Shown here: positions 23,102 through 63,887 of the stretch, in pieces
How positions within the stretch are numbered: the first letter of the stretch is position 1
Layout: every line of letters starts with the position of its first letter
Assembly (NCBI RefSeq): GCF_037042905.1
Contig: NC_087251.1
Span: 14,758,001-14,822,000, forward strand
Direction: 5' to 3'
DNA: 64,000 nucleotides
Source of the DNA: Lytechinus pictus
Lineage: Eukaryota
Notes under the pieces: generated by a model
Told to the model about the DNA's origin: nothing
Seen by the model: the letters and a program-made list of their open reading frames with translations, nothing else
Databases searched by the model: none
Program-made: the position numbers and the translations under genes

Positions 23102-23620
23102 CAGTGCGTCCCACAAAAAACGAAACCGAGATTTATCATAACTTAATCACAAATACAATAGACAAATGACCTACCATTGTAAAGCTTAGAATCTCCTCTT
23201 TCATCTGGAATTACTTAGATTATTTCTCATTCACAAATGAGTGAGCAAAAACAATTTGAAGAGGGGATACCTAAAAGTCATTTGGCGGGCTGTATCTGGG
23301 TTTCAAAACGAAAACCCCATTTTTAAAAAGTTCAATATCTGCTCTTTAATTTGATACCTCTATTACAGAAAATGGTCAAGAAATAACAAAGTTCTGGTTA
23401 TTTGAAATAAGGCTTGAATTTCAATAATTTCATAAAATGAAGAGGTTTTACAGGCTAGCGTTCAAACTCACTCGACACTCCGTTTTGTTGACGATCAGCC
23501 ATGCATTAAGTCTTTTGTTAACCATGCGATAGCTTCTGTGGGGAAACCGGTGAAAACACGTTTATCTAATGAAATTATGGAAATACAAGCATAGTTTCGA
23601 GGGAACATAACTTTTTTACT
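23102..23620 (+). mobile_element. Tc1/mariner-type MITE left arm
   Basis: TA|CAGTGCGTCCCA terminus; an inverted diverged partner lies at ~24690-24889. Confidence 0.7.
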
Positions 23621-23774
23621 TCTCGACCAACCAAAAAATTACTTTTTTTCTTTCCAGGGCTCTTTTTGGAGAAACTTAAAAATTTTCCAGGGCTACTTTT
23701 TTATTTTCCAGGGCTCTTTTTCCACTTTCCAGGGCTACAATTTCTGGAGCTATTTCGCGGCTTTTTTGCGTTTG

Positions 23775-23812
23775 TGTGTGTGTGTGTGTCTGTGTGTGTG
23801 TGTGTGTGTGTG
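23775..23812. repeat. (TG)n microsatellite
   Basis: Direct read. Confidence 0.95.
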
Positions 23813-24142
23813 TCACATTGAAGGGATGCTGGTCAGCAGTGCAGGGCTGCTCTGCTGCAGGCTCTGCTTTAACAAGATGTACTGTACATGCGGTGCGTTC
23901 AACGCTAGCGGGCGTGTATATTTTGCTTATTACATGACGTCATCCAGCCACTGCCGAGAGCCAATTTATGAATGAAAATATAGTAAGCATGCGCAGTGCA
24001 AGCCTTCCATAGCCCCACACAGTATTCCACCAAAACAAGTGTACAATACTCTATCACCTCGCACCAAAATCGACCTAGAATTTCACTTTCCTATAATTTA
24101 TATGAATTATGAAAGGTATTCTCGGAGGATCTATTTTCTCAC

Positions 24143-24680
24143 CGATACCGAACAGGTAAGCGAATTTCGATTACTTCTTGATTTTCGGTCAAAATCTTAC
24201 GAATTAGCGTTGATATAGCATCGTGGAGTTTGTAGAGTCTATCGCAACGTGTACAAAGTCAATTGATTTCCGGGTTTCGGATCCGGAGCGTCGCGTGAAT
24301 ATGCATGAAATTGCCGAGTCTCGATAATTTTCGATCGATACTGGAGCGATCCGATCACGAACCAAGACCATTTCCCGCGTAGACAATGTGACCGGATATC
24401 GTTATCGCTATCGATACTTTCGCACGCAGTCCGAAGGAATTATTTTGGCGACCACGTAGTCATGACGTGATCTGCGCGATTGGCCAATCAGCGGTCTCCG
24501 ATTCGCTGAGCCGAGACGGTCTATTCGTTGTACACAGTCTATGGACAATTTGCCACTGTGAAATATACAGTGTTGACGGGGGCGATTATGAGTTTTGCAG
24601 TCGCCCTCGTGTGAATGTTTTTAGTCCTTTTCTGGGGCTCTTTTTGGACTTTCCGGGGCGAATTCGCCCGCCGCCCCCGT
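24143..24680 (-). promoter_or_regulatory. Probable AQR non-coding exon 1 and CpG-rich housekeeping promoter
   Basis: Minus-strand donor CG|GTGAGA at 24143/24142. CpG-dense stretch with an ETS-like atttccggg (~24267), E2F-like TTTCCCGC (24371), DRE-like TATCGATA (24409), CRE-like TGACGTGA (~24463) and back-to-back CCAAT boxes GATTGGCCAATC (24478-24489). TSS is inferred, not shown. Confidence 0.6.
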
Positions 24681-26741
24681 GTAATTTTTTGGTTGTTCTC
24701 GACCATTTTTTGTGATAAAGGTATCAAATAAAAGAGCAGATATTGAACTTTTTTAGGCATGTGAATTTCTTTTTGAAATTCAGATACCCCCCGCCAAATG
24801 ACTTTTTGGTATCCTTTCTTCAAATTGTTTTTGCTCACTCATGCGTAAATGAGGAATAATCAAAGTAATATCAGATGAAAAAGGAGATTGTCACTTGGTC
24901 TAATTCACATTGCCACTTCCCCCCATCCATTTTAAGGAGGGGGCGAAAAAGTATTTTAAAAAACAGAATGAGAAAATAAGACGAATGACTACGAACAAAG
25001 TATTAAAAAAATACATGATTTGATGGCTTTGTCACTTTTGGAATCCCCCAAACACCTTGGCCTCATTCCTCAAATATTTCATATCCTATAACAACATCAG
25101 TCTTGGACCTGAACCCTATCTACCCCCCCCCCCCCCCCCGAGCCTTTTTTTTTTTTTTATATCAAGGAGTTTGAAAATAGCAAAGAAGCAAGAAAAAAAA
25201 ACAGAAGCAAAACAAAACAATACAAACCCCCTTCCAACCCAATGGCATGTGTCCCCCTACCCTCTACCCCTCACCATAACCCCCCCCCTCCCATGCCCTT
25301 CGTTGTCACAACTCTCCGTTCTACTCGTGTGGGGGAGGAAGTAACTTGTTCCTTCCTTCTATGAATGGTAAGAATGAAAAAATATATATATATATGTACA
25401 TATATATATTTATGAAATATACTCTTATACCTTATAGCATTCATTAAAAAAAATTATTATTGTTATTATTATAAACAAATATCATTTATTTCATTTATTT
25501 TTTATTCTTATTTTATTTTTGCACTTATTTATCAATTATTTATTATTTTTTCTTTATTTATTAATTTATTTATTTCATTAATAAATTAATTAATTTATTT
25601 ATTTTTTATTATTTTTCTTGCACAGTAGATTTATCAGACAGGCCTTTTCAGTCACTTTTATACCCATTTTGTTCCAAAAGCACGCAATCTAAATGTTTGC
25701 GCTCACTTTGCTCGCTCGCAAGTTCACTAAATATTTAGCGAGGAACACATTTCCCATTATTTCTGAGCATTCATCAGAAGGAAATACATAAATAATCGAG
25801 ATATGCTTGAAAGGATTATATTTTACTTCTCAAAACATAATGAATCTTTATATTTGGGGTGCCCCCCAAACCCCAATTAAAGCCCTATTGGTATCACACT
25901 ACCACATCCACGTGCGTACTCATTATGGAACCGGATTTACGTCACTGAGAAATGATTGCACAAGTACTCAAAGGAATTCGAAGATGGAGGCGGTCAAAGC
26001 TTTTTGCTCATAGTGACGATACGTAACATATTTTCTTCAGACTAATCATCCCTCAAAAGGTAAGAGTTTGTAAACTATTCTTATTGTGAATCTTTGTTAC
26101 ATTCAATACTGAATTCTTGCACTGTCATTCTTCTGTCATGTTGAATTTGCTCTTCTATATCACCTACACACAGTTTCTTTTTAGTCCAGGCCTTTGCACT
26201 AGACCTAGTATTGGATTAACGAAGATATCCCAGGGGGGCATTGCCATTACACCAATGACAGCATGCTTTGTACGACCTGTCCATATAGTAATAATGACAC
26301 TAGAGGGCGTACTCTTACGATTGATGTTGGGAAAGTCAATGGGAGGTGCCATGGCTGGGTCTAACCCACACGGCGAATCACTCTAAAGTCCGGGTACGAT
26401 CTACTGTCATGGCATTAAAAAAAAGGAATCAATGTCCTTTTATCATACACTGAAATAAATGAAAATGCTATAGGCATTATCAGTTACAACATGTGCACGT
26501 GTTTGTTTTTAAATCGTGTGTGAACGTGCGAGTGTCATGTGGAGAGTGTTTTATGAAAGGACATGTCAGAGGTTTTATCCAACAAGTCCGGAATTATTTG
26601 ACAGTAACCAATGTAACTGTTGCTCACTGCCAATCTGAAAATGTTGATGAAACGCTCCCCCAGATAGATGGAAGTCCGGGAAAGGAAAATTTTACTCTAT
26701 TTATTTAGATAACAATATTTTCGGCACGGAGCATCCTTTCA

Positions 26742-32420: not shown

Positions 32421-32606
32421 GGAGGCGCGATAGCTCAGTCGGTGGAGCGGGGGTTTTTTATTCCGGTGACCCGGGTTCGATTTCCAAATGGTGCGCTTGT
32501 GCCCTTTGGTGAGGCATTTATCCTCATTACCAGACCTTAAGCCGTTGGTCCCCTGGTTGCTTGCTCACAGGCATTCGTGCTTTCTTAGCAGTCAGGTAAA
32601 AAACCT
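32421..32606 (+). mobile_element. tRNA-derived SINE
   Basis: TAGCTCAGTCGG A box, GGTTCGATT B box; same family as 15776-15970. Confidence 0.85.
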
Positions 32607-32696
32607 CGGTAAAACCTAAACCTATCATTACATATGAATTGTGCTATCATAACAAAATTGTAGTGTAGCGGTAGTGAAGTGGAGCCTGCACGAACT

Positions 32697-35106: not shown

Positions 35107-35364
35107 AAGTTCAAGTGCACCCCAGAAAAAATGTTTGAATAAATAGAGAATTATGAAGCAAGACTAACGCTGAAAACTTCATCAAAATCGGATGTACAAT
35201 AAGAAAGTTATGACATAATAAAGTTTTGCTTATTTATCACAAAACAGTTACATGCACAATTCATTGATATCTAAATGAGAGAGTCAATAATGTCACTCAC
35301 TATTTCACTTTTATTGTTCGAATTATACAATATTTCAATTCTCACGACTTTGACCAAATAGGAC
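35107..35364 (+). mobile_element. Truncated Kolobok-like MITE (family of 63157-63739)
   Basis: TTAA|agttcaagtgcaccccag; shared block aacgctgaaaacttcatcaaaatcggatgta. Confidence 0.75.
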
Positions 35365-36371
35365 CCTCTTTAAGTATATACATGAGATGCAACCTGTTGA
35401 TTTTTGGTACAATTTCCTTATGCGCCAACGACTTGAATCGAGAATGTTTGAAAGGAAAAATTCGCATTTCGATTGTTGTTTGCGTAATTTCCACCGCAGT
35501 ATGAAGGATGACTAAGGACGGACCGAGCGAAGTATCCTGGTTGAGATTTGGAGGTAAGCGATAAAAACACTTTTATAAATAATTTAAAATTCCTTTTTAA
35601 AATGAACTTAAAAATACGATCAAGATTAACATAGTGGACAAATATTGAAAGGTTTGGCGCAGTTTAGTCCCTCACATTCGTGTGATGAATGAAAACGTCA
35701 AAATGCACTATGAAATCACATGCGTTGTGCGAGGTTAGTATACTAACCTCGCATGTTGTGAGAGTGGGTAGCGGTCTCCCAACACTTTTTATATTATATT
35801 ATTATAATTCTGTCAAGTGAATTTGACTTCAAGTTCAACCAGGGACCGGATCTCTTGGCTTGCCTTCCGTCTGGTAAGTGGTATTTATGATTTTGATCAA
35901 TGATTTTTTTATAATCTTGTCATTCAATGAACAATGAACACTCACAAGCTTAGACAGCTGGCAGCCGTCTGTTTCGAGGAGTTTTTTAAAAAATTTTATT
36001 TTTTTAATTTCTCCTCATACACAGACTGCTCGCTATCGTGCAGCCACCATTAGGGGACTTACAATGCAAAATCCCCCCGTCAGGGCTCTTTAATTTTTGT
36101 CTTTAATGAATCAAACTTTTGAAAATTAACGCGACCGAAATGCAAATTAATATTCCCTCTTGGCATTGATTGCCAAAAAACGGGGAAAAACAAGTTAAAA
36201 ATAAAAGGAACAAAAATAGTGACTAACCTCGGCTGTCGCGCTACTTCACTGCCCTATTTTATCCGAACTAATACACATAAACATATGCCACATATGGCCA
36301 TTGAGTCCCATGTACAGATCGCGCTAGAACTTCGGTCTCTGTATTTGGTGAGTGAAGCCAACGGAGTTCAG

Positions 36372-36682
36372 GGGCCGATTGCACGAAAGGGTCTTTCCAA
36401 GGACCGTCATTCGTGTCGCCCATCTTTTATGATGCGCTATAAGCGGGGTGTTTCTGAAATTTATGATAAACAAATAAAATTTGTAAGCTTGCTTTTAAAT
36501 CAAATTTTATACAATTTCATTAGATATCACATCATTTTATAAACAAATATTTTGTTTATTTTAACGGACAAATAAAATATATTTGCAGATAATTTATTTG
36601 AAATGCGTTTCACATGGCGTATCATAAAAGATGGGCGACACGAAAGACGGTCCTTGGAAAGACCCTTTCGTGCAATCGGCCC
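36372..36682. mobile_element. PIF/Harbinger-like MITE with ~65-bp TIRs
   Basis: GGGCCGATTGCACGAAAGGGTCTTTCCAAGGACCGTC... and its near-perfect inverse; CAG/CTG flanks. Confidence 0.85.
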
Positions 36683-36685
36683 CTG

Positions 36686-38882
36686 GCCCACTCCTAGTAC
36701 CAATGAGGTCCAAACATTAACATGTATGGACCTCATAGGCGACAATGCGTTAAAAACAGGTTAGAAAGTCCTGCACCCAAGTATTTTTATGATATTAGTG
36801 ATTATTACTCGAAAAATGCAAGCTTTGTCCTCATTTGTTTAGCATTTATTAAAAAATTACCCATTAACTATACTTTAAATGTTATAAAATAAAGGGAAAC
36901 TTACATTTGAGTCCTTTTTCGATCTTTTCTTGGCAGTCAGTCCGGTCCCGTCGAGTGCGATCAAAGCGGTACGAAGCTGATTTTCAGATCACGTGATACG
37001 AGTAGTCATCACCTGATCGATCGACTATCCTTTTTTAAAGACCGCAACAATTATAAATTTTATTATAAAATATATATAGAATAAATAATTGCATGATATT
37101 ATATATATTTCTACAATTAAAAATATTTTGTGATATGAATTTAATATTTGACGTAAAAATCGCTATTTAACAAAATATTGATTAAAAAATAAAAAATCAA
37201 ACAAAATAAAAACGCCTTGGACACAGTGCAAAAAACCTAACAATTTGGCCGCGTTCTTAACAACTATCGTAAGGGGCGCTCTATTTATAAATAAAGTTGC
37301 ATATGTAGCTGTCTACCGCGACAGGAACAGCCGCAGAATTGAAGCCAGAAGCGTGGGAAATTGCCAGAAAATTCAAGAAAAGAACCGGTGAGTACCGATT
37401 TAACAGTACTAATTTATTAAGTAACATTTATTGAATCATTACAAGATTTATTTTTTAGTAAAACAAAGCTTAGTTCTAAGCTAGGGCGGCCCAAATGCGC
37501 GTGAGTGGAGTCCCAGTTTATTAGCACGGGTAAGTATTGGGCACTCCTAGTACCAATGAGGTCCAACATTACATGTATGGACCTCATAGGCGACATCAGT
37601 AGTATTTTTGGTTAGAAATCTCTGAGAACAGGATATTTAAACATTATATCACAAGTACAAGCTATAATTCCTTTCTCTTATTTAAATTATAATTTTATAG
37701 TGTAAATGCATCGTTAGCAACAACAAAAAATGAAAGAAATGAAGGGGAACTTACATTTTCACGGCTTTTTCCTGATTTTCTGGGCAGCTGCTCTTCTCTT
37801 CTGACTCGCGATCGAAGCTGATATGAAGATCACGTGATTCGCGTTCTCGTCAGCTGATCGGTTGGTTATTCTTTTCGTCAGACGTTAATAATATATATTT
37901 TATAATGCTAGCATTCATCGCTAATTTAGGTGAAAGAGATTGAAGTTAAACAGCGCCAGGTCGGAATCATAATTATTTTGGAAGAGTGTATTTATACACT
38001 CGATCTCATACCTGACGTAGACGGCGCTATTCAACAAATGCACAATCTTCAATATAAAAAATAAAACAGAAAGAACGCCTTGAACACAGGCCAAAATGCC
38101 TAACGATTTCTCTGCGGCATTAACAACTATCGTAAAGGGCGCTCCATTTATCAATAAAGATGGACGCTAAGCTGTCTATGGCGACAAAATTTGCCGCAAA
38201 TATTTATGGTCTGAAAATGCAACAAAAGAACCGGTGAGTACCGATTAAACATTATTAAATTTGTAAATAGATTATACATACCTTGTAGATTTAGTTTTTA
38301 AGTAGACAGCTGGCAGCCGTCTGTTTCAAGGAGTTTTTTAACTTTTTTTTTTTTTTTAATTTCTCCTCGTACACAGACGGCTCGCTAGCGTGCAGCCACC
38401 ATTAGGGGACTTGCAATGCAAAATCCCCCCGTCGGGGCTCTTCAATTTTTGTCTTTAATGAATACAAATTTTGAAAATTAACGCGACCAAAATGCAAATT
38501 AATATTCCCTCTTGGCATTAATTGCAAAAAAATGGAGAAAAATCAAGTTAAAAGGAACAAAAACAGTGACTTACCTCGGCTGTCGCGCAAATTCACTTCC
38601 CAGTTTTATCCGATCTTAAGTACATAAACATATGGCCATTGAGTCCCCTGTACAGATCGCGCTAGAACTTCGGTCTCTGTATTTGGTGAGTGAAGCCAAC
38701 GGAGTTCAGCTGAACAACCAACATAACAGAGACCGAAGCTTTTGGTCTAGTTTTTAAGGTGATATTAGTGCTTAGTTCTAAGCTAGGGAGGCCCAAACGC
38801 GCGTGAGTGGAGTCCCAGTTTATTAGCACGAGTAAGTATTGGGGTGTCGCCTAGACTTTATTGGGGTGTCGCCTAGAGTGCC
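36686..38882. mobile_element. Head-to-tail dimer of an ~850-bp non-autonomous element (Harbinger-like or CMC-like)
   Basis: Units start at ~36689 and ~37542 (cactcctagtaccaatgaggtcca); right end ctagagtgcc; CTG flanks, or alternatively CAC..GTG termini with a CC duplication. Confidence 0.65.
38303..38749 (+). mobile_element. Short TAGAC..GTCTA element with 9-bp TSD, nested
   Basis: gtttttaag at 38294-38302 and 38750-38758; removing it restores collinearity with unit 1 of the dimer. Confidence 0.9.
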
Positions 38883-47903: not shown

Positions 47904-48042
47904 CTAATCTTCTGTCCTTTCAGCACCTTCTGGTACTAAATGTTTGAGGACACCTTTGAAGAACATCCCTGAATCCTCAAGACCAGGCTGGAAACATTGA
48001 TCTAACCAAACAGTCCTGTACTCTTCCATCATACTCAATAAC
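47904..48042 (-). CDS. ANK-GH20 terminal coding exon (LLSMMEEYRTVWL...ERTED*)
   Basis: ccag acceptor, in-frame TAG. Confidence 0.85.
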
Positions 48043-51000
48043 CTGGGTAATAAAAAGGGACAGTAACATCATGGTAAACGACCATAATTAAGTGCATTTG
48101 TACGTAAAGTTCCGAGGGTAGAATGAAAGTTTTGAAATGTACATTGTAAACTCAAGGGTCAACAGAAAACAAGCAATCTCGGCTTTCATGGGATATCCTA
48201 TCAGGGCATTTGAAACTCCCAAACCTTCTTTGGGTTATGTATTGTTATACAATCAGGGTATATCAACAAAAAAAGCTTTCTATGCATCATTCCTGGGGGT
48301 GTCATGGTCTAGTGGTTTTGACTCTCATTTTTCAATGTCAGAGACATGAGTTTGATCCCAGCCATGGCATGTTTTCTTTCAGCAAGGAATTTACCCACAT
48401 TGGTTGAGTGGTGAATGGGCTGGGCTGCCTGGGCACTCAAGAATTCAAGGAATGCTTCAGTGCCTAGGCAGCCCAGTTAAAGCCAGGGTAAAAATAATAG
48501 CAGGGCATACTGGGAGAACAGTTTTCGGAACTGAAGTGGCTACGCTGGGTAATTAATGTTCTTATTATGAAATTAAATGTGTACTGTAATCTCAAATCTA
48601 AGATTGAAAACTATTGGGCACCATTTGAGCAACCTGCAAGATAAAAAAATATTGAAATACATGTAATTTCTCAAAATTAACTATATTTGGCATATCAGGG
48701 CCAAAATGACTGTCTTGTTTCATTTTGTTTTTCAATTTTAAGCCTGGGCATCTGTATTATTTGTATTCATTAGCCATTATTTTACCGATTCATTAGAGAA
48801 ATTCTATTGGTTTAAAAAATTGAAAACCCCAGAAGCTACAGATACATATCTTGACACAAATAACATGGACCACAGCTAATTAATAACCTGGGAATGCATT
48901 CCTGAACATTTGTCATCTTGCTAACTCTCCTTGATTTTCAAAGGCTAAGCACAGGTGTCAACTGTTACTATGGTAACTGTCAGACCAAACATCAGACAAG
49001 TACTTTCATTAAATACTCCCTGGAAAACCTGATGTTTTTCAAATTGGATTTTCAAACAGATTGAAAAGGTGTGAACTATCCTACTTCAGCAAAAACAAAA
49101 TGGAAAAAAACACAATGAAAATCAATTTAAAAAAAAAAAAAGTCTGAATATCTATATGCTTACTTATTAGCTGAATCTGTCTTTGTGGTGGCAGATAGGT
49201 TGGCAAGTCCTACGTTGATGACATTGAAACCACTCTGGGCATGGTTGGGTTTCTTACCAGTAATCACTAAAGCTCTTACAATCCTAGGAAGAAAAAAAAA
49301 TGTATGTCAAGGTATATCTCTCTTGGTGCGAAGGGGATTTGCTTGTTCCAATTTTTTTAACTCTTAACAATGGATACCTCTAAAACATCTACACTCTCTA
49401 TTACAGTAAATTCTACATTACTTTTTTAGTGATTCTAAATATATGTAATTTATTCAATTTTATGCAAGACAACTGGGCTTGATACATTTTGTAAACAACT
49501 TCCATTACATCCTATATCGTTTGCTTTGATGACTTTCTACACACATTGTATTTTTTCTGTACTGATATGCTTGATCCATATAATTCAAGCACACTTAAGC
49601 ATTGTTCAAGTTTCTATATTGCAATGACAGAATAGAAAATTTATCAAAGTTGTCTCTTTGTTCATTCCTGCAGTTTAACAAGAATAAAGCTAGTTTGCAT
49701 TAAATAATATAATTATGACTACCATCAATGCCGCAGTTGGAAAAGCAGAGTAAGATAATCCCCAAGTTAATTTTTTCATGTTGCCCCTCTTACTTGATTC
49801 AGCATTTAAAGCATTGATACTTACTTGCAAGCCCAGAACATCAAGTCAAGAGTAAGATGAACCTGAATATAAACCCTCCTGTCGAGCTTGAGTTTATCTA
49901 CAGCATTCAGAGAAGTTTGTGACTTGCGTATCCTTCTCATGGCAGTCTACACAGAAGGAAAAGAGAATTAGGAACTGTGAAGATGGTATCGAACCAAGAT
50001 GAGGCACAAAGAGAAAACCAACCCTATAAAAGATCAGTGGGAGGGTGGTATGAGTCCACCAATAATTCACAAATACAGACCCATCAACCTCCTTTCTAAC
50101 ACTCCCATCCACGTAACCAATACAGTCAACATCTAGTCATAATACTACCACCATGACTCTAGGACAACTCACATTGATGACTTCGAGTGTCATGAACTCC
50201 AGATCAACACTGTCCGTATCCTGGATGACCCGACAGAGGAAGGAGCCCTCTTTGGCCGGTATGACCACTGATTTGTGAGTGATGGGTAGATCTAGTTGAT
50301 TGAGTGTTGCCTGGGTGAGGTAGGTATCGATGCGACCGACTTCAAGGATAGCTTCACCAAGCGGTGAGTCAGGGTCCTGTAGCATGTGACGATTGATCAT
50401 TGCAGACAGGTTGCAATGGAGAAATTCCTGCAAGAAACCAAACAACAATACTACTTGATAGCAACATTTTTCATTTTGGGTCTAAAAATTTGAACACCTT
50501 GAAAAAAAAATATATCATTCAAATGTACATTGTATCTTTTGCAACCTCAGTCACAATTGCAACAAAAAAATAATTATTATTAAAAAGGGATAAGAAATTT
50601 GAAGCCTGTTGCATGAAATGGTTGCATGAAATGCAAGTCCCAAATATTAGCTTTTGGTTGGCTGAAAACCAAATGAAGTTTCAATTTTTAGTTGCATTTG
50701 ATTGAAATTCTTAACAAACCCCTGGTCGTGTGGTTTGATAGTGGAAGAAGAGGCATATACAAAGGACTACACAAAAATGTTTAGCCTAAATTCTTCAGCC
50801 ATTCCTTGTCATATCTTGACTGACGGTACAACAAGAGTAATCTCATTGATCAGTAAGAGGTGTGGAGTGCTTCTTATGAGTATGATCTAACCAATGTAGT
50901 GATGCATTATATACCACTCACAACTGATAGATAAAGGAAGATTTTTAATTCCACTTAAATCTTTGTGAACACCCTCCCCCCTTTGATGATGATGGTGATG

Positions 51001-54000
51001 GTGGTGATGATGATGATCATCATCATCATCATATAACTCACCAGAGGTGTTGATGCATTCCAAGACAGGCCTGCTGCAGCGATGTAACCTGGCCAGCTAA
51101 GTACTGGATGATTGGAGTAAGTACAACCAGCCCAGTTGGTCAATAGGAGACCAATGGCATTGGGGTTTGTAGTAGCTGTCTTGATGGCATTAGATATGTT
51201 ACAGATAGAGCCTTCTGGACCACCACCCAAACTGAAACAAATTCATAGATGTAAAAAATTATAAACAATATCAAAAGAAATGCAAATTAACATCAAATTC
51301 AAACCATAGAAAATATAAATATATGTATCACAACAGTAGTGTAAAAGATTGTAATTGATAATTTGACCAAATTAAATTACTATGAGGACGTGCGTTCAAA
51401 TTACAAAAGAATGCAATAAATGATAAATGAAGTATAATGAGATTCTAACCTAAGTAATCACAAATATCACTGAAGTACTAGTCAGTCAAAAGAATGTAAC
51501 TGTTTAAAATGATTTACATAATCACCAGATCATAGAAAATATGTGTAAAAATATTAAACATTTCAAGGGCAATTAGTTGTAATATCATTCTGTAAATAAA
51601 TAAAACTTGTTTAAAAAAAAAACACATAACTTGAATGTAGGATATGGATAAACCATTCCCCTTTTCTATCATAATGTAACATCTAATTCCTGATATGCAT
51701 TCTGCAAGAGCACAGTTTGAAAAGATTAAATAGAAATAAAGAAACCTACCTATTCCAGACACCTGTTCCAGGGCACACATAGAAACCTTGTCTGAAAGGA
51801 GAAGATGAAAAATTAGACCAAAAAATGTGCTAAATGAAAATAAAGCATTCACATATCAACTCAGCCTGCTTAAAAACTTTGAGTGGTATTCTGATACTTA
51901 AACTGGGGTGTAACTTCAGACTAAATTGAAAGTTTAATCCACAGGTTTACGGAATGTCGAGCTCATCCTCCTTATTCAACATTCATAATAAGATAGTGCA
52001 TCAAATAATTCACTGTGAACTCAACCAATCCCTTTTCTTTTTCATTTAATTTAAAAAATAATTGTTTTGGATAACTTTTCAAAAGGGGATTAAAATAGTT
52101 TGTATTTGGTTAATGAATTGGCAACTGACATCCATCAAAGCAAGCAAGAGAGATATGGGGAGGGGGAGCAAGTAGTCCTATTGCAATCAAGAATATGTGA
52201 CTGGGTACATATAACTTACCCACTTCCAAGTAGCTTCTTTCCTGACTTCTGAAAGTCAGAGTTGCTCTGGAAAGAAAATAACCCAGGTTACTTTTAAAGG
52301 GCTGAATTAACATTGTACAAATAGGATAATTTTACTTCTGATCAAATGAAACCAACATAACCAATAATGTCAGAATGTCTAAATAAACGAAAGACAATAA
52401 AAGCTTACTTTACACCGTGCTTGCAATTTAAAGGCATTCATACATTATAATACAGGAAGTGTGTGAAGTTACCAAATCTATCCTCCTATTCTACACTTGG
52501 CTATTGCATATTATCAGATAATTAATAATAATATTATTTATATAGCGCACGTATCCACCTTGTAAGGTGCTCAAGGCGCTCCTATATTACCCCAGCTATT
52601 AAGAGTCTACCGAATTCGGTGCTCACAGCTTTTAGAGGAAATACTACCTGACGGTACCCATTTACCTCAATCAATTTAACATCATACAGTAGTCAGCAGA
52701 GAAAGAATGAAGATATACAACTCTACACACACAAGATATCATATAGAATGTCCGTACAAGAGTCCTTATACAAGGGTGTATTGTTTTACACACCAATGCT
52801 TATCAGATGATCAAGGTGATTTTCATGATACAATATATGACAAGAATTATATGTATAGGAATCATCGCACAAGGGTATTATGGCTTACATACCCTTGCCT
52901 CGGAATCTCATCTGAACAAATGGTTCAGTTACTCTCTCTGCTCCAACAAAATGCCAAACTAATGATCTTAAAGTTCAGCAAGATTTGTATAAGCAGATAT
53001 CATCCACATACAATTTTTTGTAAATGGAATGGGTAATTAAACATGAGAAAATAATGATCTGCTCATTTCATATTTATTAGAGTGGAAACAATGATATTGA
53101 TAATTCCAAATACCATAATTATTGGATCAAACAAAGCTTATAATGAAGAGGAATCACACAATGAATGTCAATATTGATAGAATGCATGTTCAGATTTGAA
53201 AACACTTGTGCTCTGTGAAAATGACTAAATTTTCTGGGAGTTCCATTTCCATAATTAAATCCAATAATAGCACTAATACAAGAATAGCACTTGGAAAACG
53301 AAAGTGCCCAGGTGTACGAACAGAAAACTATTCCTCGCATTTAAATATAAAAAGGAAGGCACAATAGAAAGCATGCAAACAACCATTACAAATATTGTCA
53401 ACAGAATTTCATTGACCATGTAGAATTTTTCAAACTGGAAAAGGCAGTATAAAGTGCAACTTACTTTGGAGCCATACAGCATAGCTACACTTCCTATGGG
53501 GAGTTGTTTGAAGCTGGTCTCATATACAGAGATAACATTAGCACAGAAGAGTGCTGTTTGATTCCTTCCAACGCCTATCAACCTCAGTTGATCTTGTATA
53601 CTTAGAATGAATGGTGACGGTCTTGGGAGTTCTACTTCATCCTCTTGTACTACTGTCATACAGAAAAAAGGATGATCGGTCTTTCAAAACATATCATTAA
53701 ATCATAATATAGAGACGTTCTCATATCAGAAAAACAGACAAATAATGAAAACTAATCAGCAATTTGCACATTCAACATTTCATTCTTTTCATTCGTTTAT
53801 TAGCATGCAATGGAACATTCACATTTCTAAAGAAAATAATGCACATTCTTGCCTTCCTAAATGACTTCTTTGAATTTTGCTTTCATGCTGACAACATCCA
53901 TGAAAACATTCTTGCATTACTAAAAAGATGTTTACTTTCACACTTGCGCATTCTCAGGTATCATTCCCTATCAGCAGGAGTAAACAAGTATACCGAATCT

Positions 54001-57000
54001 TTCTCTACTCAGATTACTGTATATACCATTTTATTGCTTTTTCTTTATAAAGATTAACAAATCAAAGTTGAGTTTGGCTGATTTACTGAGGATTTCTTAG
54101 CTGTGTGGTCAGGGATCCATAACACAAATGTTTGCAATGGATAGGAAACATCAAGTATGAAAGGACGACATTGATTGGTTTCTCACCAATGTTTTATACA
54201 AATAGTGCATATAACATTGATCTTCAATTGATCACCAGACTTCTAGGTTTACCTTCTGCTTCTGGTTCCGTCTCTGTTTCTCCAGACTCTGTCGTCTTGG
54301 TGTCCGATGATTCCTTCTTTGTAGTAGGATCAGGTGTCTTTGACTGATCTGTTGAGGTGTTTCCATCTTGTGGTGTTTCTGGACGAGGGCTTGGAGGAGG
54401 CACTGAATCTAACAGCTTCCTTGTCAAGTTTGGTCCAATGTTCACAACCCTGCAACACACAAAGCAAAAAAAAGTAGAAATGCATTTGGTTACCATAGTG
54501 TACAAAGGCATCTAAACTTTGCTTTAAGACACTCATTAACAATGATCATTTTAATTTACAAAGATCAAGAGCATTTCATCAACATTTCTTGTCCAACAAG
54601 TTGTCGGATCTGACAACTTTCCTTGATTTTAATTTGCTGAGAAGCACTGTTACTGTAGTATAGGTAACTGTCAGATAAAACAAACTTTGTTGGATAACAC
54701 ATCTGACAAGTACTTTTATAAACCGTTCCCTAGATTCCAACATGAACTGATGGGAATCACTCTAATTTAGCAGCTAAGAAAAGGTCACAGATCGTGCGTA
54801 ACATGCAAACAACATCAAGTCTGAATCAATACTTTTAAATCAAAGAAACAAAAATAAAAAAGCTGGCTACTAGATTTTTTTTCCTTGATGCTTCATTATA
54901 AAAGTTTGAGTTATATATGTCCTGTTGTTATATTATCTTGCTTTTTTAATAGTTCTTTTATTCTGATATTGCTAAACCTATCAGAATATGTTCCCTCACT
55001 TGGGTAGCCAACTCGACAAAACTTGACAAGCCAGCTGGCTTTAGTTAACTTTTCCCTTAATTCCTTTCTTACATGTACAGTGTAATTATCATATGTGTAC
55101 ATGTACACTGTAATTATCATATGTGTGTGCATGAACCAAGGTTTATTTAACGAGTGTCTTCTTCCTCTTCTTATTTACATTGTTTGTATATACACACTGT
55201 GTTAAATTCAATATGGAATTAGGGATAAATGAACTTGAAATACATGCATGGCTCTTACTTTGTGGATCCAAATCTTGATAGGACTTGTTGGAAGATTGAG
55301 AAGAGAGGAGGTGAAAGGTCACTATCTTCCATCAGATCAATGTGAGGAACTAACTTGATGAACCTCCACTGACAAAACACTTCCAGGTCAAGCAATTCAC
55401 TGCATGAGATCAATATAGGAGTTGAAGACTCTTTAAAAATGTTTAATGTGACTTCCAGAAAATGTCACAAACTGCATACATATAATTCATTATTCCATGA
55501 AAAACAAAATGCTGAAAACAATGCAAAGAACTGAATTATCAATTCTGATTGAAAATAATATAAATTAAAAAAAAACTTTGGTTGAAAAATTACCTTCCAG
55601 AATATGGCATGGTGTCATGTATAGGACTATCCTTGTATGCTTTCACATACAGATGAAGCTGTGGTGGAAAGGAAAATCAGAATGAAACAATGAAGTTAAT
55701 TTGGTGTCATATGTTTTAAATACAAGAGCAATACTTATCCGTATAGTTAGATTATTCTAAACAAAGGATATGTGACAGTCAGTGTTTTTGTTTTCCTTAA
55801 AATTACCATTTTCATTATCATTTCATCACCATCACTGTTCTTATTTAGTGTGGAAACAGCACATTTTAGCAAGCATCCCAATCAGCATCTCTCTAAGAGT
55901 CTTTCCACTATGAAAGGAATGAAAAGATGCTTATAAGGATTCCCACTGAATGATGTGGTCCAGACTTTCTTATTGCTTACCTCATTGTATTTGAGCTGAG
56001 CAAAACTATTCACAAGTTGAAGTAGAGTATCCTGAAAATGAAAACAATAACTCCAATTACAAACTTGATCATAGGTTTTATGTTCTATCCAAGTATACAT
56101 TTATTTACATAATTGAAAACAGATGAGCATGCAATCCATATAAATATCTAGTTTGTTTTTCACCCATCACCATAAGTCCCTTGCTTTTTTTTTTTTGAAA
56201 TTCTGATTCTTATCCTTAAGAAAAAAAGTCAATATGACTATCAACTAATCCAATACTATTAAATAAACTATCAACTAATCCAATATTATCAAATAAAAGA
56301 GATACTGTAAACCTTGTAAAGGTCAATACTTCTAGTCAATGCAAGAATCTTCTTTTTGATATGTTGTTTCACAAAAACTCAAGTTTGACTAAAAGTCATG
56401 CTAAACATTCAAAATCCATGTAAAAGTGGTATGATATGAATTCAGGGAACATTTGGTCAATTTTAAGGTGGGTTTTTGTTCTCACTTTCTCCCAAACAAA
56501 ATTTGTGAATGGTCTTTGTTTTAACGATCGTTTGAACATCAGTTAATCATTTTGACTCGGGTGAAACACCACTCTGATACATGAAACTAACTCACCATCC
56601 TTGGTACTCTGCCAGCTGATAAGTCTAACATGACAGCTCTATGTTTGATGCTAGGCCAATCAGATATCTAGTAGACAAAGAAATATGAATAGTAACATTA
56701 AAATATTCATCATCTTTGTGTAAGATTTTCATTCGTATGGATCTGGATGTGTGTGATTGCTTTTGTCTCTTCAACTGTCTGATGAAAGATGTATGCAGAA
56801 AAGAAAATAATCACATACATCCAGATCTAGACTTGGTTACATTCATATATATGCAGGTTGCTGTTTTTCTTTGATATTTTTAGTTACATCATGTTATACT
56901 TTAATTTGAATTATTTTTATAATTGATTACTGATTTTACTGTCTTTTTGTAATAACTTTCTTGTTATAGGGAATACATTTGCTAAATTGATTTGATATCT

Positions 57001-60000
57001 ATATCTTTTTTTTTAATTCATAATTGTAAAGTGCATAGATAATTACACCAGTTATCATGTACTTGATAAGTATCCTCTACTATTATTATCATTAAGATCA
57101 TAATTACAGATTAATTCCTGGTAAGATTGAGAGCCCTCTCTTGGTAATGTTTATAGGCTTGACTTACCTCAAGCTGTGGAATGCCATCCTTGTGACAGAG
57201 CTGGACCAACTGAACAAATGTACTTGTAGCATGCCATAGACCTGGAAGATCAGCAGCAACGATCGTCACCTGAAGGTACAATACGAAAAAGGATTGGTTA
57301 TTTTTTTTTTTTTTTGGTATCACCTCCCCCCCTTCCAAATGGCGGCTCATGGATTTCAAAATTACTTCATGTTTATAAACCCCAGAAAATATCATGGTCT
57401 CATTCATGGGGAAAATTAGGGATATAAAGTATATGAATCTAAGTGCTTCCAAACACTTTCAAATTGTCTGTTTCACTAAAGCTCATCTCCTAAATTAAAA
57501 CAAGTTTCATCAGACTTGACTACCATTATCTCACTCACACTCAAAAAACTGCAGCTATCAATCCTATAATAGCAAAAAAATTTGTTTTATTGGTCAGAGT
57601 CACAAATGTACACTTGTTGGCATGACATGGTCAACATAACAGTAGCATATAAAGAGTACAAGCAGTTTTTCCAATGAAGCCCAACTGCAAGTTTGTATCA
57701 AAACATGTACAAAAAGTTATTATCAATTGTACATGTAAATATAATTGTACAAATGCTATGTTAAAAAGGCTTATCTGCCATCTTCTCTACATATAACCTT
57801 TACCACTTTGTTACTTGGCAAAGAAGGGCATAGATCTGAGCTGTAGGATCTATGCACACTATGAAGTCCTTCAAAACACGATCTCTTTAGCCAGAATTCA
57901 CTAACGTGGTTTTGAAATCTATCGATTTAACTCATGGTTTATGCATATTTCATGTCCAATGCTGATGCACTCTTTTGTCATAGAGCACCAAAGTGGTGCC
58001 TGTTGCCATGGTTACGAATGCTACTTTATTAATGATTCCACTGTTTTGACCATTGGACTCATAAATTAAAAACAGTTGACTCATGAATAAAATAACGTTC
58101 TTAACCACGGCAACAGGCGTCAATTTGACAGACCAAGAATTGGTTACGAAGAGGTTACTTACCATCTTTTCACTGACTGATAACCTATAGCTTTCCTCTC
58201 TGCAGAATGGTAGAGGGTTGATAGTACAAACAATCTGAGCAGTAGGATCTAGGCATACTACAGAATTCTCCAAAACACAACGATAGCCTTTCTCCATCAA
58301 GACGGCTGACTGGATCGTCCAGAGGTCAACCATGGGTTCAAGGGTACCTGTACACGCATACATTCGTAATTCCGAAGCTTCGTTATTCCGAAGGTTCGGA
58401 TATTCCGAAGGTTCGTTATTCCAAAGGTTCATATTTCCGAAGGTTCGTAATTCCGAAGGTTCGTTTTTCCGAAAACGAAGTGAGGTTCGTAATTCCGAAG
58501 GTTCGTTAATCCCAAAACAAAATGAGGTTCGAAATTCCGAAGGTTCGTTAGTCCGAAAACGAAATGATTAACGAACCTTATTTCGTTTTCGGACTAACGA
58601 ACCTTCGGAACAACGAACCTTATTTTGTTTTCGGATTAACGAACCTTCGGAACAACGAACCTTATTTCGTTTTCGGATTATCGAACCTTCGGAATAACGA
58701 ACCTTCGGAATAACGCCACAAATGTTCGGATTAACGAACCCTTTTACGTTTTCGGATTAACGAACATCGAGGTATAGGCAATTTACGTGTTTCGGAATTA
58801 CGAACCTTCGGAATAAAGAACCTTCGGAATTACGAAGTGTAACCCCTGTACAAGGTCAAATTAATCAACTACCATGTTGAAGCTAGTATAAGTTGATAAA
58901 TGGTGTCATTATTTTGCATCATTTACATATTTTGACAGATGTAAAATGAACTGATTAATGAAGAGATCAATGCTGAACAAAAAAAAATGGTATTTATATT
59001 TAATTGTCATATTTTTGTTGTAGATTCGGGCAATGTTTGGAAAGAATTTGTCTCAATAACTTTAATGTTATGCATTTTCAGATATTCAGAGCTGCAACCG
59101 AATTTGGATCAAAATTGATAAAACATCTTGAAATATATCTTATATACTTCTTCAGATGCAGACATTCTGGAATCGTATAAAAAGAACTAAACAACAAATG
59201 AGAACTCGTTCTAATCACTTTTATAACCCTTATTATCGTCTTTATCATTGTGTCAATCAATGCCTCATCACCAAGCTAACCCCTAATAAGTCTCCTGCAT
59301 TCATTATTATCTTTTATGATGTTCATGTCTATATTAATGTTACTTTACACTAATTTATGTCAACTTCATTTATCATATGCTCAATTTCTATCATTGATGT
59401 TTGTAAGCATTTAATGAGCTGTCCTCATAACTGTTCAATTCTGAGATATAACATTTCCTAAAAATGAAACCAACTAAAATTCAAGTCAGTCATCACCTGA
59501 TTGAGGCATAGCTGCTAGTTGTACACTGAAATCCTGGCTAAGAGTAAATTTGTTTCCATTCTTCTGGACAAGCTGCTGAGGTTTGGGCCAGAGAAAGGCC
59601 AGCCTTGGGTCTTCTTCAACATCCTCCTCCTCCTCTTCCTCTTCTTCTACAGTCTCCACCTCAACCTCCCCGTCATCTTCCTCATCCTCGTCTTGGACTG
59701 ATGATGATACTTGAGGACTCGCAGCCTGCACAGAATATTTTCCATAAAACTATCATATATGAATTCATTTCATATCACTTGTATACTACGGCCACTTTAT
59801 TGAATTCACAATAGAGGAATAAAATTTCAAAATATGTAAATATAGAAAGTTGACAGTTTAGGTCATGATACATTACTTGTCAAAGTTCTCAAGATTTCTT
59901 CAGATTTTATTTGATATACAGTGCGTATCAAAAAAAAGTTTACACTTTGAAAAAGCACTGGGAATTAAAAAATATACAACATATGGGTAATTTTTCCACA

Positions 60001-63000
60001 TATAATCTTGGGTTTGGGTCTCATCTATCCAATGAAAGTAAAAGTTTTGTCAGAATGTTACACTTGAGTGAGCACTGTCCATTTTTGTAAAGCTCGTAGA
60101 AATCTGTTTGCGCAAAAATGCTCGTTTTCACACTGTGTCAAGGGGAAAGGGCGAAATCAAACTTACCCTGCGAAACATTTCTCATACATTTCCCTTGCAC
60201 TTTTAGTCAATTGAAATAAAACGGATACATTCAAGCATTTTGTAACAATTTTGTCACCCAAATTGAAATTTCAACACTTAGTAAGCACAACCTTTACCCT
60301 TTTTGAGGACATAACTTAATCTGAACAAAAGTTTATATCAGACATCTCCAGCATTTTTTCACTAAGTTTTTATAATTGAATGTGGGTTTACATTTCATTT
60401 TTCATTTAATACTTGTTTCTCCACACTTTTCCCAAGCTTGGCAATGATTAACAAAATGAAAATCAGGCTTAAGCCATTCCATGTAAATCACAGCTCAGTG
60501 TAAAGCAAATATTGTCATAATGGCCTCGGTGTGTGGGGGAGTGGAGTGGGGCAAAATGCACTCTTTAAGGTGTTTTGGGCAAGGAAACAAATCAAAAAAA
60601 GCAAAATATATCTTCAAATAAATTTTACTAGCAAAATTCCACGTGTTCTTCATGATTAAGGTCTACTTTTATTCGCATAACTATTTCAAAGTTCTGCGCA
60701 AATTATCATTTTTCACTAACTTTTCAAAAGTAAGTGGTGCTCACTCAAGCGGAAATATTTTTCGGCAGTTATATTGTCATTTGCTTAAATGGATCTGTAC
60801 CAATGTTAAAATGTGGAAAATCTTCAAGATATTACAAATGTATAATTTTACAGGATTTTTTCAAAGTGTAAACTTTTTTTTGATACGCACTGTATATACT
60901 GAGTTTATAATACAGGAATGAATTTTACAACAATACATAGACCTATTACTGTCAATGCAAGGCAGCAAATTGAATTTAAAGTAAACACATTACAGATGGT
61001 TCATACATGTGAGCCTGTGTAAATATTCCCAAGTAGATTGGTTCTCCTTACCTCTGGGGTTGTAGTAGAATCATCCTTGACAGATGAATCCTTCTCTTCT
61101 TCAGTCTTGACCTCCTCCAAAGTGACTGAAAAGAAAGGCACATCTACACCTACGTAAAACATAACATTACTCAACCTACTCTACATTTTAACATGAAAAA
61201 ATAACATATCAACAGACTAAACAATATAAGCTTTTAGAGCATGCAAGGGCATACCAGTTTAATTTGCAAAATTTGAAATCCCTTTAAATTGATTTGAAAA
61301 ATTTGTCGGCCATAACCTCCATGATTTTTTTTTTGGGGGGGGGTGGTCATTAGCAAAATCACTGACGTTTAGTATAGTCAAAGCAGTCCAAATACCTTCT
61401 GTTATCACCTTGGTTATGTCAGAAATTTAAAAATTTCCCTGTGTAATTCATTAAATTCCCTGACTAATAATAAGAATAAAACACTCACTATCTGCATCAT
61501 CAGATTGCTCTACTGTTTCACCATTCTGTCCATTCTCTGCGTGTCCATTCATGATGACTGGTGGGACTAATACATCTTTCAGTTCTTGACTATCCTCTGC
61601 TAAATCTAATGGACTCTTTCCTTCTGATTTACTAAATGGCATGAAAACAAAACAGCAAATATACATTAAATCATTTGAAGATGACAAGGCAATAACAACT
61701 GTGCACCTAGGAATAGAATATTTCTAAATAGACAGAATCACAAAATGAAAATTTTGTTGTTTCTTTCATTGTCTGTTTTTGATGAAACCAAGTTGATGTC
61801 AGGGTAAACTTCCCCTTTGAATTAAAGGCCTCATGTTCAATTGACTTTGTGTACAAAACCTCAATGAGCTTTGATGCTGGGCCATCCTATTCCTTTAAGA
61901 ATTTACTCACCCTCCTGTTGCTTTAGCATTGATGTCTGCACCCCCTGCAACCAGCTCCTTCACAATGTCAACATCCCCCCTCAAGACAGCATCATGTAAG
62001 GGTGTGGTCCCATCGGAATTAGTAGCGTTCACATCTGCATTGTGCTCTATATAAACATGACATGAACAGCAAATCAATTCAAAGATTCAAATCACATAGT
62101 ATCAATGGGGGATTTTAATGAATTTGGTAATTTGAATGAAAATCATCTGCGATCATCATCAACTAGCCATAATCTATCAAATCATTCAATGTCTTACAGA
62201 AAAAATATGTGTACATGTTAATGAAACACTGATTTAGTTCAAATGATTTTCAGACAAGCTGTAGAGGCATTCAAACTCAGTTATGAAACCATTCTGTTGT
62301 TAGGTATCCATCCAATAAACTAAATTTAATTTGTTTAACATTTCAATCAACAATCATTGTTATTAATATCATTTTATATATCAAAACAAATGAAATATCC
62401 ATATTGAGAGATAATATCTGCATAAACATCAAACATGGAAAAAAAACTATTAAAATAAATTACATATTAATACAAACAAAAAATATTCCAATAGCCAATT
62501 GATTTATTGAAGGGCAATTGGCAAGTGACCAGAAATCTTTGATAATAGCATTCTAATTTTCATCCTTCAATTGTATCAACCCAATGTTGCCAAGAATTAA
62601 ATTCAAGATCTTTCAATTAACGAGAATCTCTTGGAAACCAATGCCTCGAAAATCAATCTAAATTCGGGATCTCTTATACACACATAAAAACAACAAATGA
62701 TCTGAGATTTCATTTAATTTATACAGATTGGCATTATTTGAAATGAAATTAAATAACCATCACAGTTATGAAGATAGACTGCATTTCAAAGCACTTTGGA
62801 GGCCCAGTTTATACAAAATCATATGAATGGAAATATAATAATAAAAAACAACCTTGAAAGATATGTATTGTGTCTTTGTGTATGTACTGTACATGTCTAG
62901 TAGGATTAAGGTGAACTGTGTTCTAAATAAAACTTTTCATTTCAAGCCTTACCTAAGAGTATTTTGATGATTTCTAGTCCTGAGAAGCTAGCTGCCCAAT

Positions 63001-63083
63001 GTAGGGCTGTATTGCCCCCTGTTGCTTCATCTTTATTATTGATATCAAGACCACTATCTAGAAACTGCTTCACTTGCTCTGCC
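47904..63083 (-). CDS. Ankyrin-repeat protein fused to a degenerate GH20 (beta-hexosaminidase-like) fold; 5' end outside window
   Basis: 20 phase-consistent GT-AG exons. ANK motifs GNTALHWAA, GTTPLHDAV, GKSPLDLA; GH20 domain-2 motifs LWPKPQ and ESYRLSV..VTIVAADLPGLWHATSTFVQL; barrel motifs ISDWPSIKHRAVMLDLSAGRVP, LKYNELHLY, FIKLVPH, FYVCPGTGVWNS, GLLLTNW; stop TAG at 47906-47904. Confidence 0.9.
48295..48560 (+). mobile_element. Degenerate tRNA-derived SINE
   Basis: TGGTCTAGTGG A box, gagtttgatccc B-box remnant. Confidence 0.6.
49164..49283 (-). CDS. ANK-GH20 exon (IVRALVITGKKP...TKTDSAN)
   Basis: AG/GT, 120 nt, phase 2-2. Confidence 0.88.
49825..49946 (-). CDS. ANK-GH20 exon (TAMRRIRKSQ...LDLMFWAC)
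   Basis: AG/GT, 122 nt. Confidence 0.88.
50173..50427 (-). CDS. ANK-GH20 exon (EFLHCNLSAM...MTLEVIN)
   Basis: AG/GT, 255 nt. Confidence 0.88.
51042..51231 (-). CDS. ANK-GH20 exon (LGGGPEGSICNI...GLLLTNW...GLSWNASTPL)
   Basis: AG/GT, 190 nt. Confidence 0.9.
51750..51791 (-). CDS. ANK-GH20 exon (QGFYVCPGTGVWN)
   Basis: AG/GT, 42 nt. Confidence 0.88.
   Translation of the reverse strand, partial: TRFLCVPWNRCLE
52220..52266 (-). CDS. ANK-GH20 exon (SNSDFQKSGKKLLGS)
   Basis: AG/GT, 47 nt; required for phase. Confidence 0.82.
53465..53652 (-). CDS. ANK-GH20 exon (VQEDEVELPRP...MLYGSK)
   Basis: AG/GT, 188 nt. Confidence 0.85.
54253..54449 (-). CDS. ANK-GH20 exon (VVNIGPNLTRKLL + low-complexity insert)
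   Basis: AG/GT, 197 nt. Confidence 0.85.
55259..55399 (-). CDS. ANK-GH20 exon (ELLDLEVFCQWRFIKLVPHIDL...RFGST)
   Basis: AG/GT, 141 nt. Confidence 0.88.
55594..55658 (-). CDS. ANK-GH20 exon (LHLYVKAYKDSPIHDTMPYSG)
   Basis: AG/GT, 65 nt. Confidence 0.85.
55981..56031 (-). CDS. ANK-GH20 exon (DTLLQLVNSFAQLKYNE)
   Basis: AG/GT, 51 nt. Confidence 0.88.
56596..56667 (-). CDS. ANK-GH20 exon (ISDWPSIKHRAVMLDLSAGRVPRM)
   Basis: AG/GT, 72 nt; GH20 signature. Confidence 0.9.
57168..57269 (-). CDS. ANK-GH20 exon (VTIVAADLPGLWHATSTFVQL...IPQLE)
   Basis: AG/GT, 102 nt. Confidence 0.9.
58163..58347 (-). CDS. ANK-GH20 exon (TLEPMVDLW...ESYRLSVSEKM)
   Basis: 185 nt; acceptor duplicated by the adjacent MITE. 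Confidence 0.85.
58355..58844. mobile_element. Foldback-type MITE built from tccgaaggttcg tandem units, 8-bp TSD
   Basis: Left half and right half are inverse repeats; cctgtaca at 58347-58354 and 58845-58852. Confidence 0.9.
59497..59725 (-). CDS. ANK-GH20 exon (acidic tract, then DPRLAFLWPKPQ)
   Basis: AG/GT, 229 nt. Confidence 0.88.
59919..60892. mobile_element. Tc1/mariner-type non-autonomous element
   Basis: TA|CAGTGCGTATCAAAAAAAAGTTTACACTTTGAAAA ... inverse|TA. Confidence 0.9.
61052..61125 (-). CDS. ANK-GH20 exon (TLEEVKTEEEKD...TTPE)
   Basis: AG/GT, 74 nt; required for phase. Confidence 0.82.
61489..61631 (-). CDS. ANK-GH20 exon (KSEGKSPLDLA...SDDAD)
   Basis: AG/GT, 143 nt. Confidence 0.87.
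61911..62046 (-). CDS. ANK-GH20 ankyrin exon (HNADVNATNSDGTTPLHDAVLRGDVDIVKELVAGGADINAK)
   Basis: AG/GT, 136 nt; canonical ankyrin repeat. Confidence 0.92.
62953..63083 (-). CDS. ANK-GH20 ankyrin exon (AEQVKQFLDSGLDINNKDEATGGNTALHWAASFSGLEIIKILL)
   Basis: AG/GT, 131 nt; ankyrin repeat. Confidence 0.92.
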
Positions 63084-63156
63084 CTAAAAAAAAATAGCCC
63101 AAAATATCAAATGTTAGAAAATGAAGAAAGTGATGCTTTTCTTACTTTGATATTAA

Positions 63157-63739
63157 AGGTCAAGTTCACCCCAGAAAAAAGTTGATTTAAATAAATAGAG
63201 AAAAATCAAACATGAATAACGCTGAAAACTTCATCAAAATCGGATGTAAAATAAGAAAGTTATGGCATTTTTAAGTTTCGCTTAATTGTCACTAAACAGT
63301 GATATGCACAACTTCAGTGTCATGCAAATGAGTCAGTCGATGATGTCCATCACTCACTATTTCTTTTGTTTTTTATTGTTTGAATTCTACAATATTTCAT
63401 TTTTTACAGATTTGACAATAAGGACCAAGTTGACTAAATCATACAGTATTAAACAATGCTAATTCCACATGTTCAGGGAGGAATTAATCGTTGTTTCACT
63501 TGACAATGATGGGAAAATCAAAATATTTCATATAATAAAATACAAAAGAAATAGTGAGTGGGTGATGTCATCGGTTCCCTCATTTGCATACCGAACAGGA
63601 TCATATGTGCATATAACTGTTTTGAGAAATTAAGCGAAACTTTAAAATGTTGTAACTTTCTTATTTTACATCCGAGTTTTTCTTGTTTGATTTTTCTCTT
63701 TCTATTCAAATCAGCTTTTTGTTAGGGCGGACTTGTCCT
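63157..63739. mobile_element. Kolobok-like MITE
   Basis: TTAA|AGGTCAAGTTCACCC ... GGGCGGACTTGTCCT|TTAA. Confidence 0.85.
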
Positions 63740-63887
63740 TTAACTAGAAAGGCAGGCAGGCTAGAGAGATGCACTGTGACATCCGCATATATGCCATTTG
63801 CAGGGGCCTCAGGAATCCCTAAAAAATATAAAATCACTTTTAGATAGTTTACCAATTGTGAGTCACCACCAAGATTGTCTTCTTCTA

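Follow-up and report, generated by a model that had tools for sequence, protein, structure and literature searches.

A foldback transposon has inserted on a 3′ splice site of the Lytechinus pictus gene LOC129264901 and has duplicated the acceptor; the earlier note on this DNA had described the event correctly. Splicing in the species is mainly normal, to the exon-proximal copy of the acceptor, and we infer that the element-bearing allele is itself a source of such transcripts. We suggest, as slightly better than an even bet, that the insertion was a chance event, is largely tolerated and is resolved by exon definition.

The host gene is on the minus strand of the window (the whole 64-kb stretch of DNA analysed, to which all positions refer), and its protein has ankyrin repeats and a GH20 domain 2, the latter at residues 292-423 (Pfam). 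The parts of the gene that matter here are the following.

47904 to 63083, minus strand: part of the host gene within the window (residues 79-961, 20 exons)
59497 to 59725, minus strand: upstream coding exon, with the donor CAG/GTGATG
58348 to 59496, minus strand: host intron of 1149 nt including the element, from a contig joint
58163 to 58347, minus strand: coding exon after the insertion, 185 nt (GTLEPM...SEKM), inside GH20 domain 2, with the consensus donor ATG/GTAAGT at its end

The host protein (P0004) agrees with all 20 window exons residue for residue, and the L. variegatus orthologue is unlike them at several residues; an earlier model of this L. pictus locus, P0022, has 124 residues and covers the C-terminus only. 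The 61-residue exon adjoining the element has matches in Lytechinus and other sea-urchin proteins, and its donor side is given by a contig joint at 57267-58161 (skip 893, cut +2). Among the 60 matches listed from a PDB search with the host protein, ankyrin repeats alone were found, and Rfam has no family at 57500-59800. The protein runs on into a GH20-like region (window 54300-54450, about residues 525-540 of P0004), where NIGPNL seems to stand at the place of the Asp-Glu pair that we take to be the catalytic motif of hexosaminidases. Judged from its residues, this region is possibly an inactive enzyme.

The inserted element is a long inverted repeat.

58355 to 58844, no strand assigned: 490-bp non-autonomous foldback DNA transposon with the ends CGCATACA and GGTTACAC (read inward), from fold, repeats and pile-ups of loose contig ends
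58355 to 58565, no strand assigned: left arm of the foldback, from inverted repeat and fold
58580 to 58844, no strand assigned: right arm of the foldback, from inverted repeat and fold

The inverted arms span most of the element (81% of its bases are paired in the MFE structure), and the arm segments 58435-58565 and 58580-58710, made of 16- and 42-bp units, are 90% complementary. The predicted fold has an energy of -306.8 kcal/mol (z = -24, none of 100 shuffles being as good), which upholds the foldback insertion that had been claimed, as do the ends fixed by other copies. These boundaries were obtained by comparing public contigs of other copies with the window in four of 24 matching runs, X1, X2 and X3 from organism A and X9 from organism B, a diverged relative. 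Among the 24 entries listed of 1041, loose ends pile up before 58355 (152 contigs in X9, 15 in X1, 14 in X2 and eight in X3) and behind 58844 (139 in X9 and 13 in X2), and the X9 contigs that leave the match at these positions have unlike flanks. The flank consensus in X9 shows a G at left position -8 and another at right position +1; this is compatible with an 8-bp target-site duplication (TSD), but weak (agreement 0.35). Because the contigs of other copies depart at 58355 and 58844, we assign a 490-bp element with an 8-bp TSD and with unlike ends throughout the family; the ends differ over about eight bases (CGCATACA against GGTTACAC), so that the inverted repeat is perfect subterminally and imperfect at its termini. 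A Tc1/mariner-like reading had first been suspected because the duplicated 8-mer is nearly palindromic and the ends are unlike, but a TA target site with CA..TG ends is ruled out by the departure of other copies at those same two positions. With its many dispersed copies and common ends the element is of the MITE type, and there is no second copy of it inside the 64-kb window. In X1, X2 and X3, which are of RNA type, many contigs carry element ends and unlike flanks, which points to family copies being common in transcripts; transcribed foldback copies are likely a source of long double-stranded RNA.

Several other repeats were noted in the window. A second high-copy inverted-repeat element occupies 57952-58127 in the next intron and ends about 35 bases from the donor of the same 185-nt exon; its right arm stops early at 58127, and other copies continue there as a mirror of 57960-57990 (58 contigs in X9 and 13 in X3). 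A foldback element of about 590 bases (63153-63743), repeated in part at 35134-35259, lies just upstream of the exon at 63083. At 23190-24889 two inverted arms, of 140 and 66 bases and separated by about 1.4 kb, are probably another TIR element. Inverted copies, 89-94% alike and 16.5 kb apart, are present at 15770-15970 and 32425-32611, and direct repeats 2.35 kb apart at 35951-36371 and 38303-38709, the first with a 72-base inverted repeat (36369-36685) beside it, are possibly nested elements.

The insertion has left two acceptors at the 185-nt exon.

58347 to 58354, minus strand: exon-proximal TSD copy, made of the seven last intron bases and the first exon base, with its AG at 58349-58348; the acceptor in use
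58845 to 58852, minus strand: distal TSD copy, behind the original intron context, with its AG at 58847-58846; no use seen
58853 to 58870, minus strand: original branch-like motifs TTGAT (A at -20) and TTAAT (A at -16 from the distal AG) and a short T-rich tract; putative branch region
58757 to 58759, minus strand: TAA, the first in-frame stop upon use of the distal AG, from translation

The 8-mer CCTGTACA is present on both sides of the element with eight of eight bases identical and a spacing of 498, an agreement expected by chance at these given ends with a probability of about 1e-5. On the minus strand each copy reads tgtacag/G, which confirms the claim that the duplicated target is the acceptor itself. 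The branch-like motifs and T-rich tract now lie 498 nt from the exon, and the context that replaces them is weaker, as had also been stated. Splicing from 59497 to 58347 gives the open frame of the RefSeq proteins. Splicing from 59497 to 58845 would enlarge the exon from 185 to 683 nt by an in-frame addition of 498 nt and meet the TAA at 58759-58757 as the 29th codon past the junction codon, just as the earlier note had it. Positions at which an 8-bp duplication would copy an AG in this way make up 140 of 14,702 in the host gene; since about 1% of positions qualify, a family that has hundreds of copies or more would be expected to strike such sites by chance.

The strength of the two acceptors was compared by a crude matrix built from the 19 other acceptors of the gene, with the native range taken leave-one-out and 853 decoy AGs as background. 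The proximal acceptor scores -0.9, which is below all 19 native sites (-0.6 to 9.5) and at the 87th percentile of the decoys, and the distal acceptor scores 3.3, with nine native sites lower and ten higher, at the 97th percentile. Pyrimidines at -20 to -4 number seven of 17 at the proximal site and ten of 17 in the old, distal context; the assertion that the proximal AG has no pyrimidine tract is therefore right as to its being the weaker, but the difference is one of degree, since seven of 17 is also the count at 59725, a native acceptor of the same gene. Branch-like motifs are found at -20 (TTGAT) and -16 (TTAAT) at the distal site, and ATAAC at -36 alone at the proximal one. Four native acceptors of the gene score between -0.6 and 0.2, both TSD copies are outscored by three AGs of the intron that go unused (4.8-5.9), and a YTRAY motif at -50 to -9 is absent from six of the 19 native acceptors. 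Because higher-scoring AGs go unused, low-scoring native ones work and six of 19 have no YTRAY, the score is not decisive: the acceptor in use is weak yet near the native range of its gene, and score by itself does not pick acceptors here.

The joint from 59497 to 58347 was found in all three runs of organism A (skip 1149, CT..AC, placed at 58345-59495, cut +2), runs that are classed as RNA-type solely by their exon-exon joints, none being on record as RNA. In X2 it lies inside an unbroken 1976-nt contig at full depth (85.4 of 85.4) and in X3 inside an unbroken 3599-nt contig, again at full depth (24.6 of 24.6). The earlier note had proposed counting this junction against that from 59497 to 58845; the former is thus present in three of three runs, and the latter does not occur among the 15 of 156 joints listed for X1, X2 and X3, a count to be read with the knowledge that contigs drop rare forms, that NMD would deplete distal products and that the animals sampled may not carry the element. 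At the protein level, all seven L. pictus RefSeq isoforms read PQSGTLEPM across the junction, and none of the 27 covering proteins (29 fetched) has an insertion there, although RefSeq protein lists cannot show NMD isoforms.

Whether the animals sampled carry the element was approached through their haplotypes. X1 contains 1206 intronic bases flanking the element on both sides, with no substitution and one gap relative to the window, and because of this run of intron without substitution we judge that X1 probably shares the haplotype of the window. The argument is weakened by X2, which has two synonymous exon differences from the window, and is hence another haplotype, and nonetheless has a 162-base intron piece identical to it. 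At all exon bases shown, X1 and X3 are identical to the window. The depth of the proximal joint in X1 is 5 against 5.6-6.7 for the exons, and the element-bearing intron is covered at 2.6 against 2.3-2.4 for the next intron, so that there is no special retention; 58920-59039 is without cover in X1, which we do not count as a finding. Record 7 of X1 begins at 59495, whereas contigs spliced to the distal AG would be expected to part one base after that. Among the organism A contigs shown, none bridges flank and element. The words found amount to 0.70 in X1, against 0.61 explained without the element, and to 0.28 against 0.18 in X3, the surplus of X1 being no larger.

Organism B appears to keep the empty site. 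In X9, letters 76-279 of a 365-nt contig (record 21, depth 66.7) fit 58148-58351, ending three bases short of the TSD end (four of the six contig differences are listed), and a contig of equal depth, 66.7, has an 18-base gap at 58910. By depth arithmetic, 82 of the 86 remaining letters correspond to 58850-58909 and about 22 bases past the gap. On this reckoning from depth, the contig very probably spans the empty site and organism B is without the element, and because of this we place the insertion after the split from organism B. The intron itself is older, to judge from protein continuity, which alone places the S. purpuratus junction at the same position, and from the same exon boundary region in organism B; the joint observed uses the host donor at 59497. 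In the downstream intron, 57834-57879 is a 46-base decayed copy, 80% identical, of the exon part 58233-58278. It was considered as a witness of the empty site and set aside, as the acceptor is absent from the copied piece.

In the reading we favour, one copy of an abundant foldback family would by chance have landed on the 3′ splice site, cutting across it with a stagger of 8 bp. The ends, the TSD and the high copy number are plain, and they would fit cut-and-paste by a transposase. The spliceosome would then recognise the 185-nt exon by the consensus donor at its downstream end and take the nearest AG, at 58348, with element sequence serving as branch region. The better-scoring distal AG, with its 683-nt exon, would mostly be ignored, and any distal product, having a premature stop, would be degraded; normal transcripts would thus come from the element-bearing allele itself. 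Exon definition as a cause comes from established knowledge of splicing, and it fits here because the proximal AG is 185 nt and the distal AG 683 nt from the consensus donor and because score is not decisive. Against a tolerated insertion stands the proximal AG itself, which scores under all 19 native sites and is predicted to be base-paired.

These same features would suit a segregating hypomorph or null, in which pre-mRNA of the filled allele goes largely to the distal AG (with the stop at 58759 and NMD), is retained or is skipped, and normal mRNA comes from empty alleles. The distal site scores higher, keeps the old branch-like motifs and presents the AG that comes first behind them, a stem of some -300 kcal/mol is predicted to bury the proximal AG, and the perfect TSD and the very probable absence from organism B fit a young insertion. 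X2, moreover, is a different haplotype. What speaks against such an allele is that X1 and X3 match the window exons (X1 also over its intron bases) and both splice to 58347, and that X1 has no excess cover of the element-bearing intron. The earlier suggestion of a hypomorph is so far unsupported, all three RNA-type runs being proximal, within the limits set by NMD depletion, dropped rare forms and genotype, and we consider it rather unlikely, though a serious competitor to a tolerated insertion.

It had also been proposed that a hairpin could bring the old branch region back to the exon. In a version of this that we regard as doubtful, the TSD-extended foldback would hide the distal AG, its four last pairs would open, and the old branch point and tract would come to lie about ten unpaired bases from the proximal AG, which stands at the base of the stem, and would serve it. 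The stable foldback is real enough as a prediction, and the predicted stem does continue through both TSD copies (at both 16 and 37 °C, GUACA and UGUAC pair with a probability of about 1.0), with its outermost four pairs predicted to be weaker (0.5-0.8); among 20 acceptors the proximal one has the weakest linear context, and stem-loops that bridge splicing elements are described for yeast and fish in the text available of PMC7404189 and PMC4691745. The difficulty is that the stem also pairs the proximal AG. In the predicted ensemble its A and G are unpaired with a probability of at most 0.01 at both temperatures (paired at least 99% of the time), the distal A being paired too, so that as modelled the static hairpin buries both AGs and does not present the proximal one. 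When the element was placed in silico at the 19 other acceptors, equal burial of the AG resulted at seven; because it recurs at these, burial is not a tuned feature. Native acceptors nearly as weak, furthermore, function without a hairpin. A literature search on hairpins between branch point and AG returned nothing relevant.

Two further schemes have little to commend them. A regulated poison exon or NMD switch, with the choice of AG governed by how stable the hairpin is, is permitted by the geometry of two AGs and an in-frame extension with a stop, but it found no support and is very improbable: there is no distal joint among the joints listed in three runs, the element is very probably absent from the relative, organism B, and so would not be conserved, and pairing is nearly equal at 16 and 37 °C. 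Removal in two steps, by splicing to the distal AG and then excising the element as an intron of its own, in Introner- or ratchet-like manner, from a GT near its end (58843-58842, just inside the element) to the proximal AG, is hardly credible, as the GT lies two bases behind the distal AG and would leave two extra bases and a frame shift, whereas the 1149-nt joint seen is exact.

Read as a single tolerated transposon insertion, the locus is valuable as a natural test case: it offers two identical AG cores, use of the one in the weaker context and, separating the two, a highly stable stem, in a species for which transgenic and CRISPR tools exist. Should hairpin bridging be true, it would help explain the high copy number of foldback elements in genes, and thanks to their hairpin shape such elements could insert at 3′ splice sites of animals with hardly any harm.

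Relatives of the element exist in marine, animal-like DNA. A search of metagenome contigs with the core repeat gave 12 hits (L001-L012), with related elements in AT-rich marine contigs; L007 and L008, 20-22-base matches in GC-richer DNA, were dropped as chance. The full-length relatives measure 430-580 bp, and two of them, L001 and L012, have GG at both ends; L002, L004, L005, L010 and L011 are partial or diverged. The end GGTTACA is common to L001, L003, L006, L009 and L012. A TSD is retained at five of eight bases in L012 (six of eight with the L003 flank) and is absent in L001. In L001 (1316-1746) and L012 (1397-1974), the internal module that stands beside GGTTACAC in the window adjoins the other end, GGGTGCGG; because of this difference in neighbours, we suggest that the two types of end have changed places from one lineage to another. 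Neither the left end of the element nor its core repeat has a match in prokaryote genomes or viral contigs. No description of the insertion or of the element family emerged from a literature search, which did not extend to Repbase and Dfam, and the family may well be catalogued there.

The Merlin superfamily, as characterised in the accessible text of PMC8101967, has an 8-bp TSD (8 or 9 bp being accepted), a GG end, internal tandem repeats and a tolerance of imperfect TIRs, and S. purpuratus Merlin transposases are given in its supplement. The Lytechinus element resembles it in its 8-bp TSD, its one GG end, its tandem repeats and its imperfect TIRs (PMC8101967). It differs in having CG at one end and GG at the other throughout the family, GG at both ends being found in the relatives L001 and L012. 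Because of the CG end, and because no transposase is linked to it, we do not file the family under Merlin. MULE, hAT and P elements likewise make 8-9-bp TSDs. Sea-urchin foldback elements were reportedly described by Liebermann et al. in 1983 (cited in PMC4079207). Known as TU elements, these share the long modular inverted arms of tandem repeats without coding capacity, and the Lytechinus element is much shorter.

Among systems that affect splicing, Introners are the closest in one respect: they co-opt a 3′ splice site from the TSD (Gozashti et al. 2022, PMC9860276; review PMC11282704, as far as their accessible text goes), and there as here a short non-autonomous TIR element has a downstream TSD copy that supplies the AG used. 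In the Lytechinus gene, however, the element struck an acceptor that was already there and created no new intron; the donor is that of the host, at a distance of 1149 nt upstream, and the former branch region has been displaced. A 2025 survey lists, in the parts available, no Introner family in L. pictus (PMC12130899), and the repeat motif of the element is absent from 12 of its supplement files. In the stem-loops of yeast (PMC7404189) and the (AC)m-(GT)n introns of fish (PMC4691745), as presented in the accessible text, a hairpin joins splicing signals and lessens the need for a pyrimidine tract; unlike these, the stem predicted in Lytechinus would also cover the AG in use. The mirages of amphioxus, in which duplicated exon-intron boundaries leave regular splicing undisturbed (PMC3087553, likewise from the text available), are alike in that an acceptor is copied upstream of the true exon, the exon-proximal copy is used and regular splicing persists. 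Mirages are minisatellite arrays whose units measure 10-160 bp and which leave the authentic site in its own context (PMC3087553), whereas the Lytechinus duplication is not a tandem array: 8 bp only have been doubled, and the AG in use has lost its context to a transposon.
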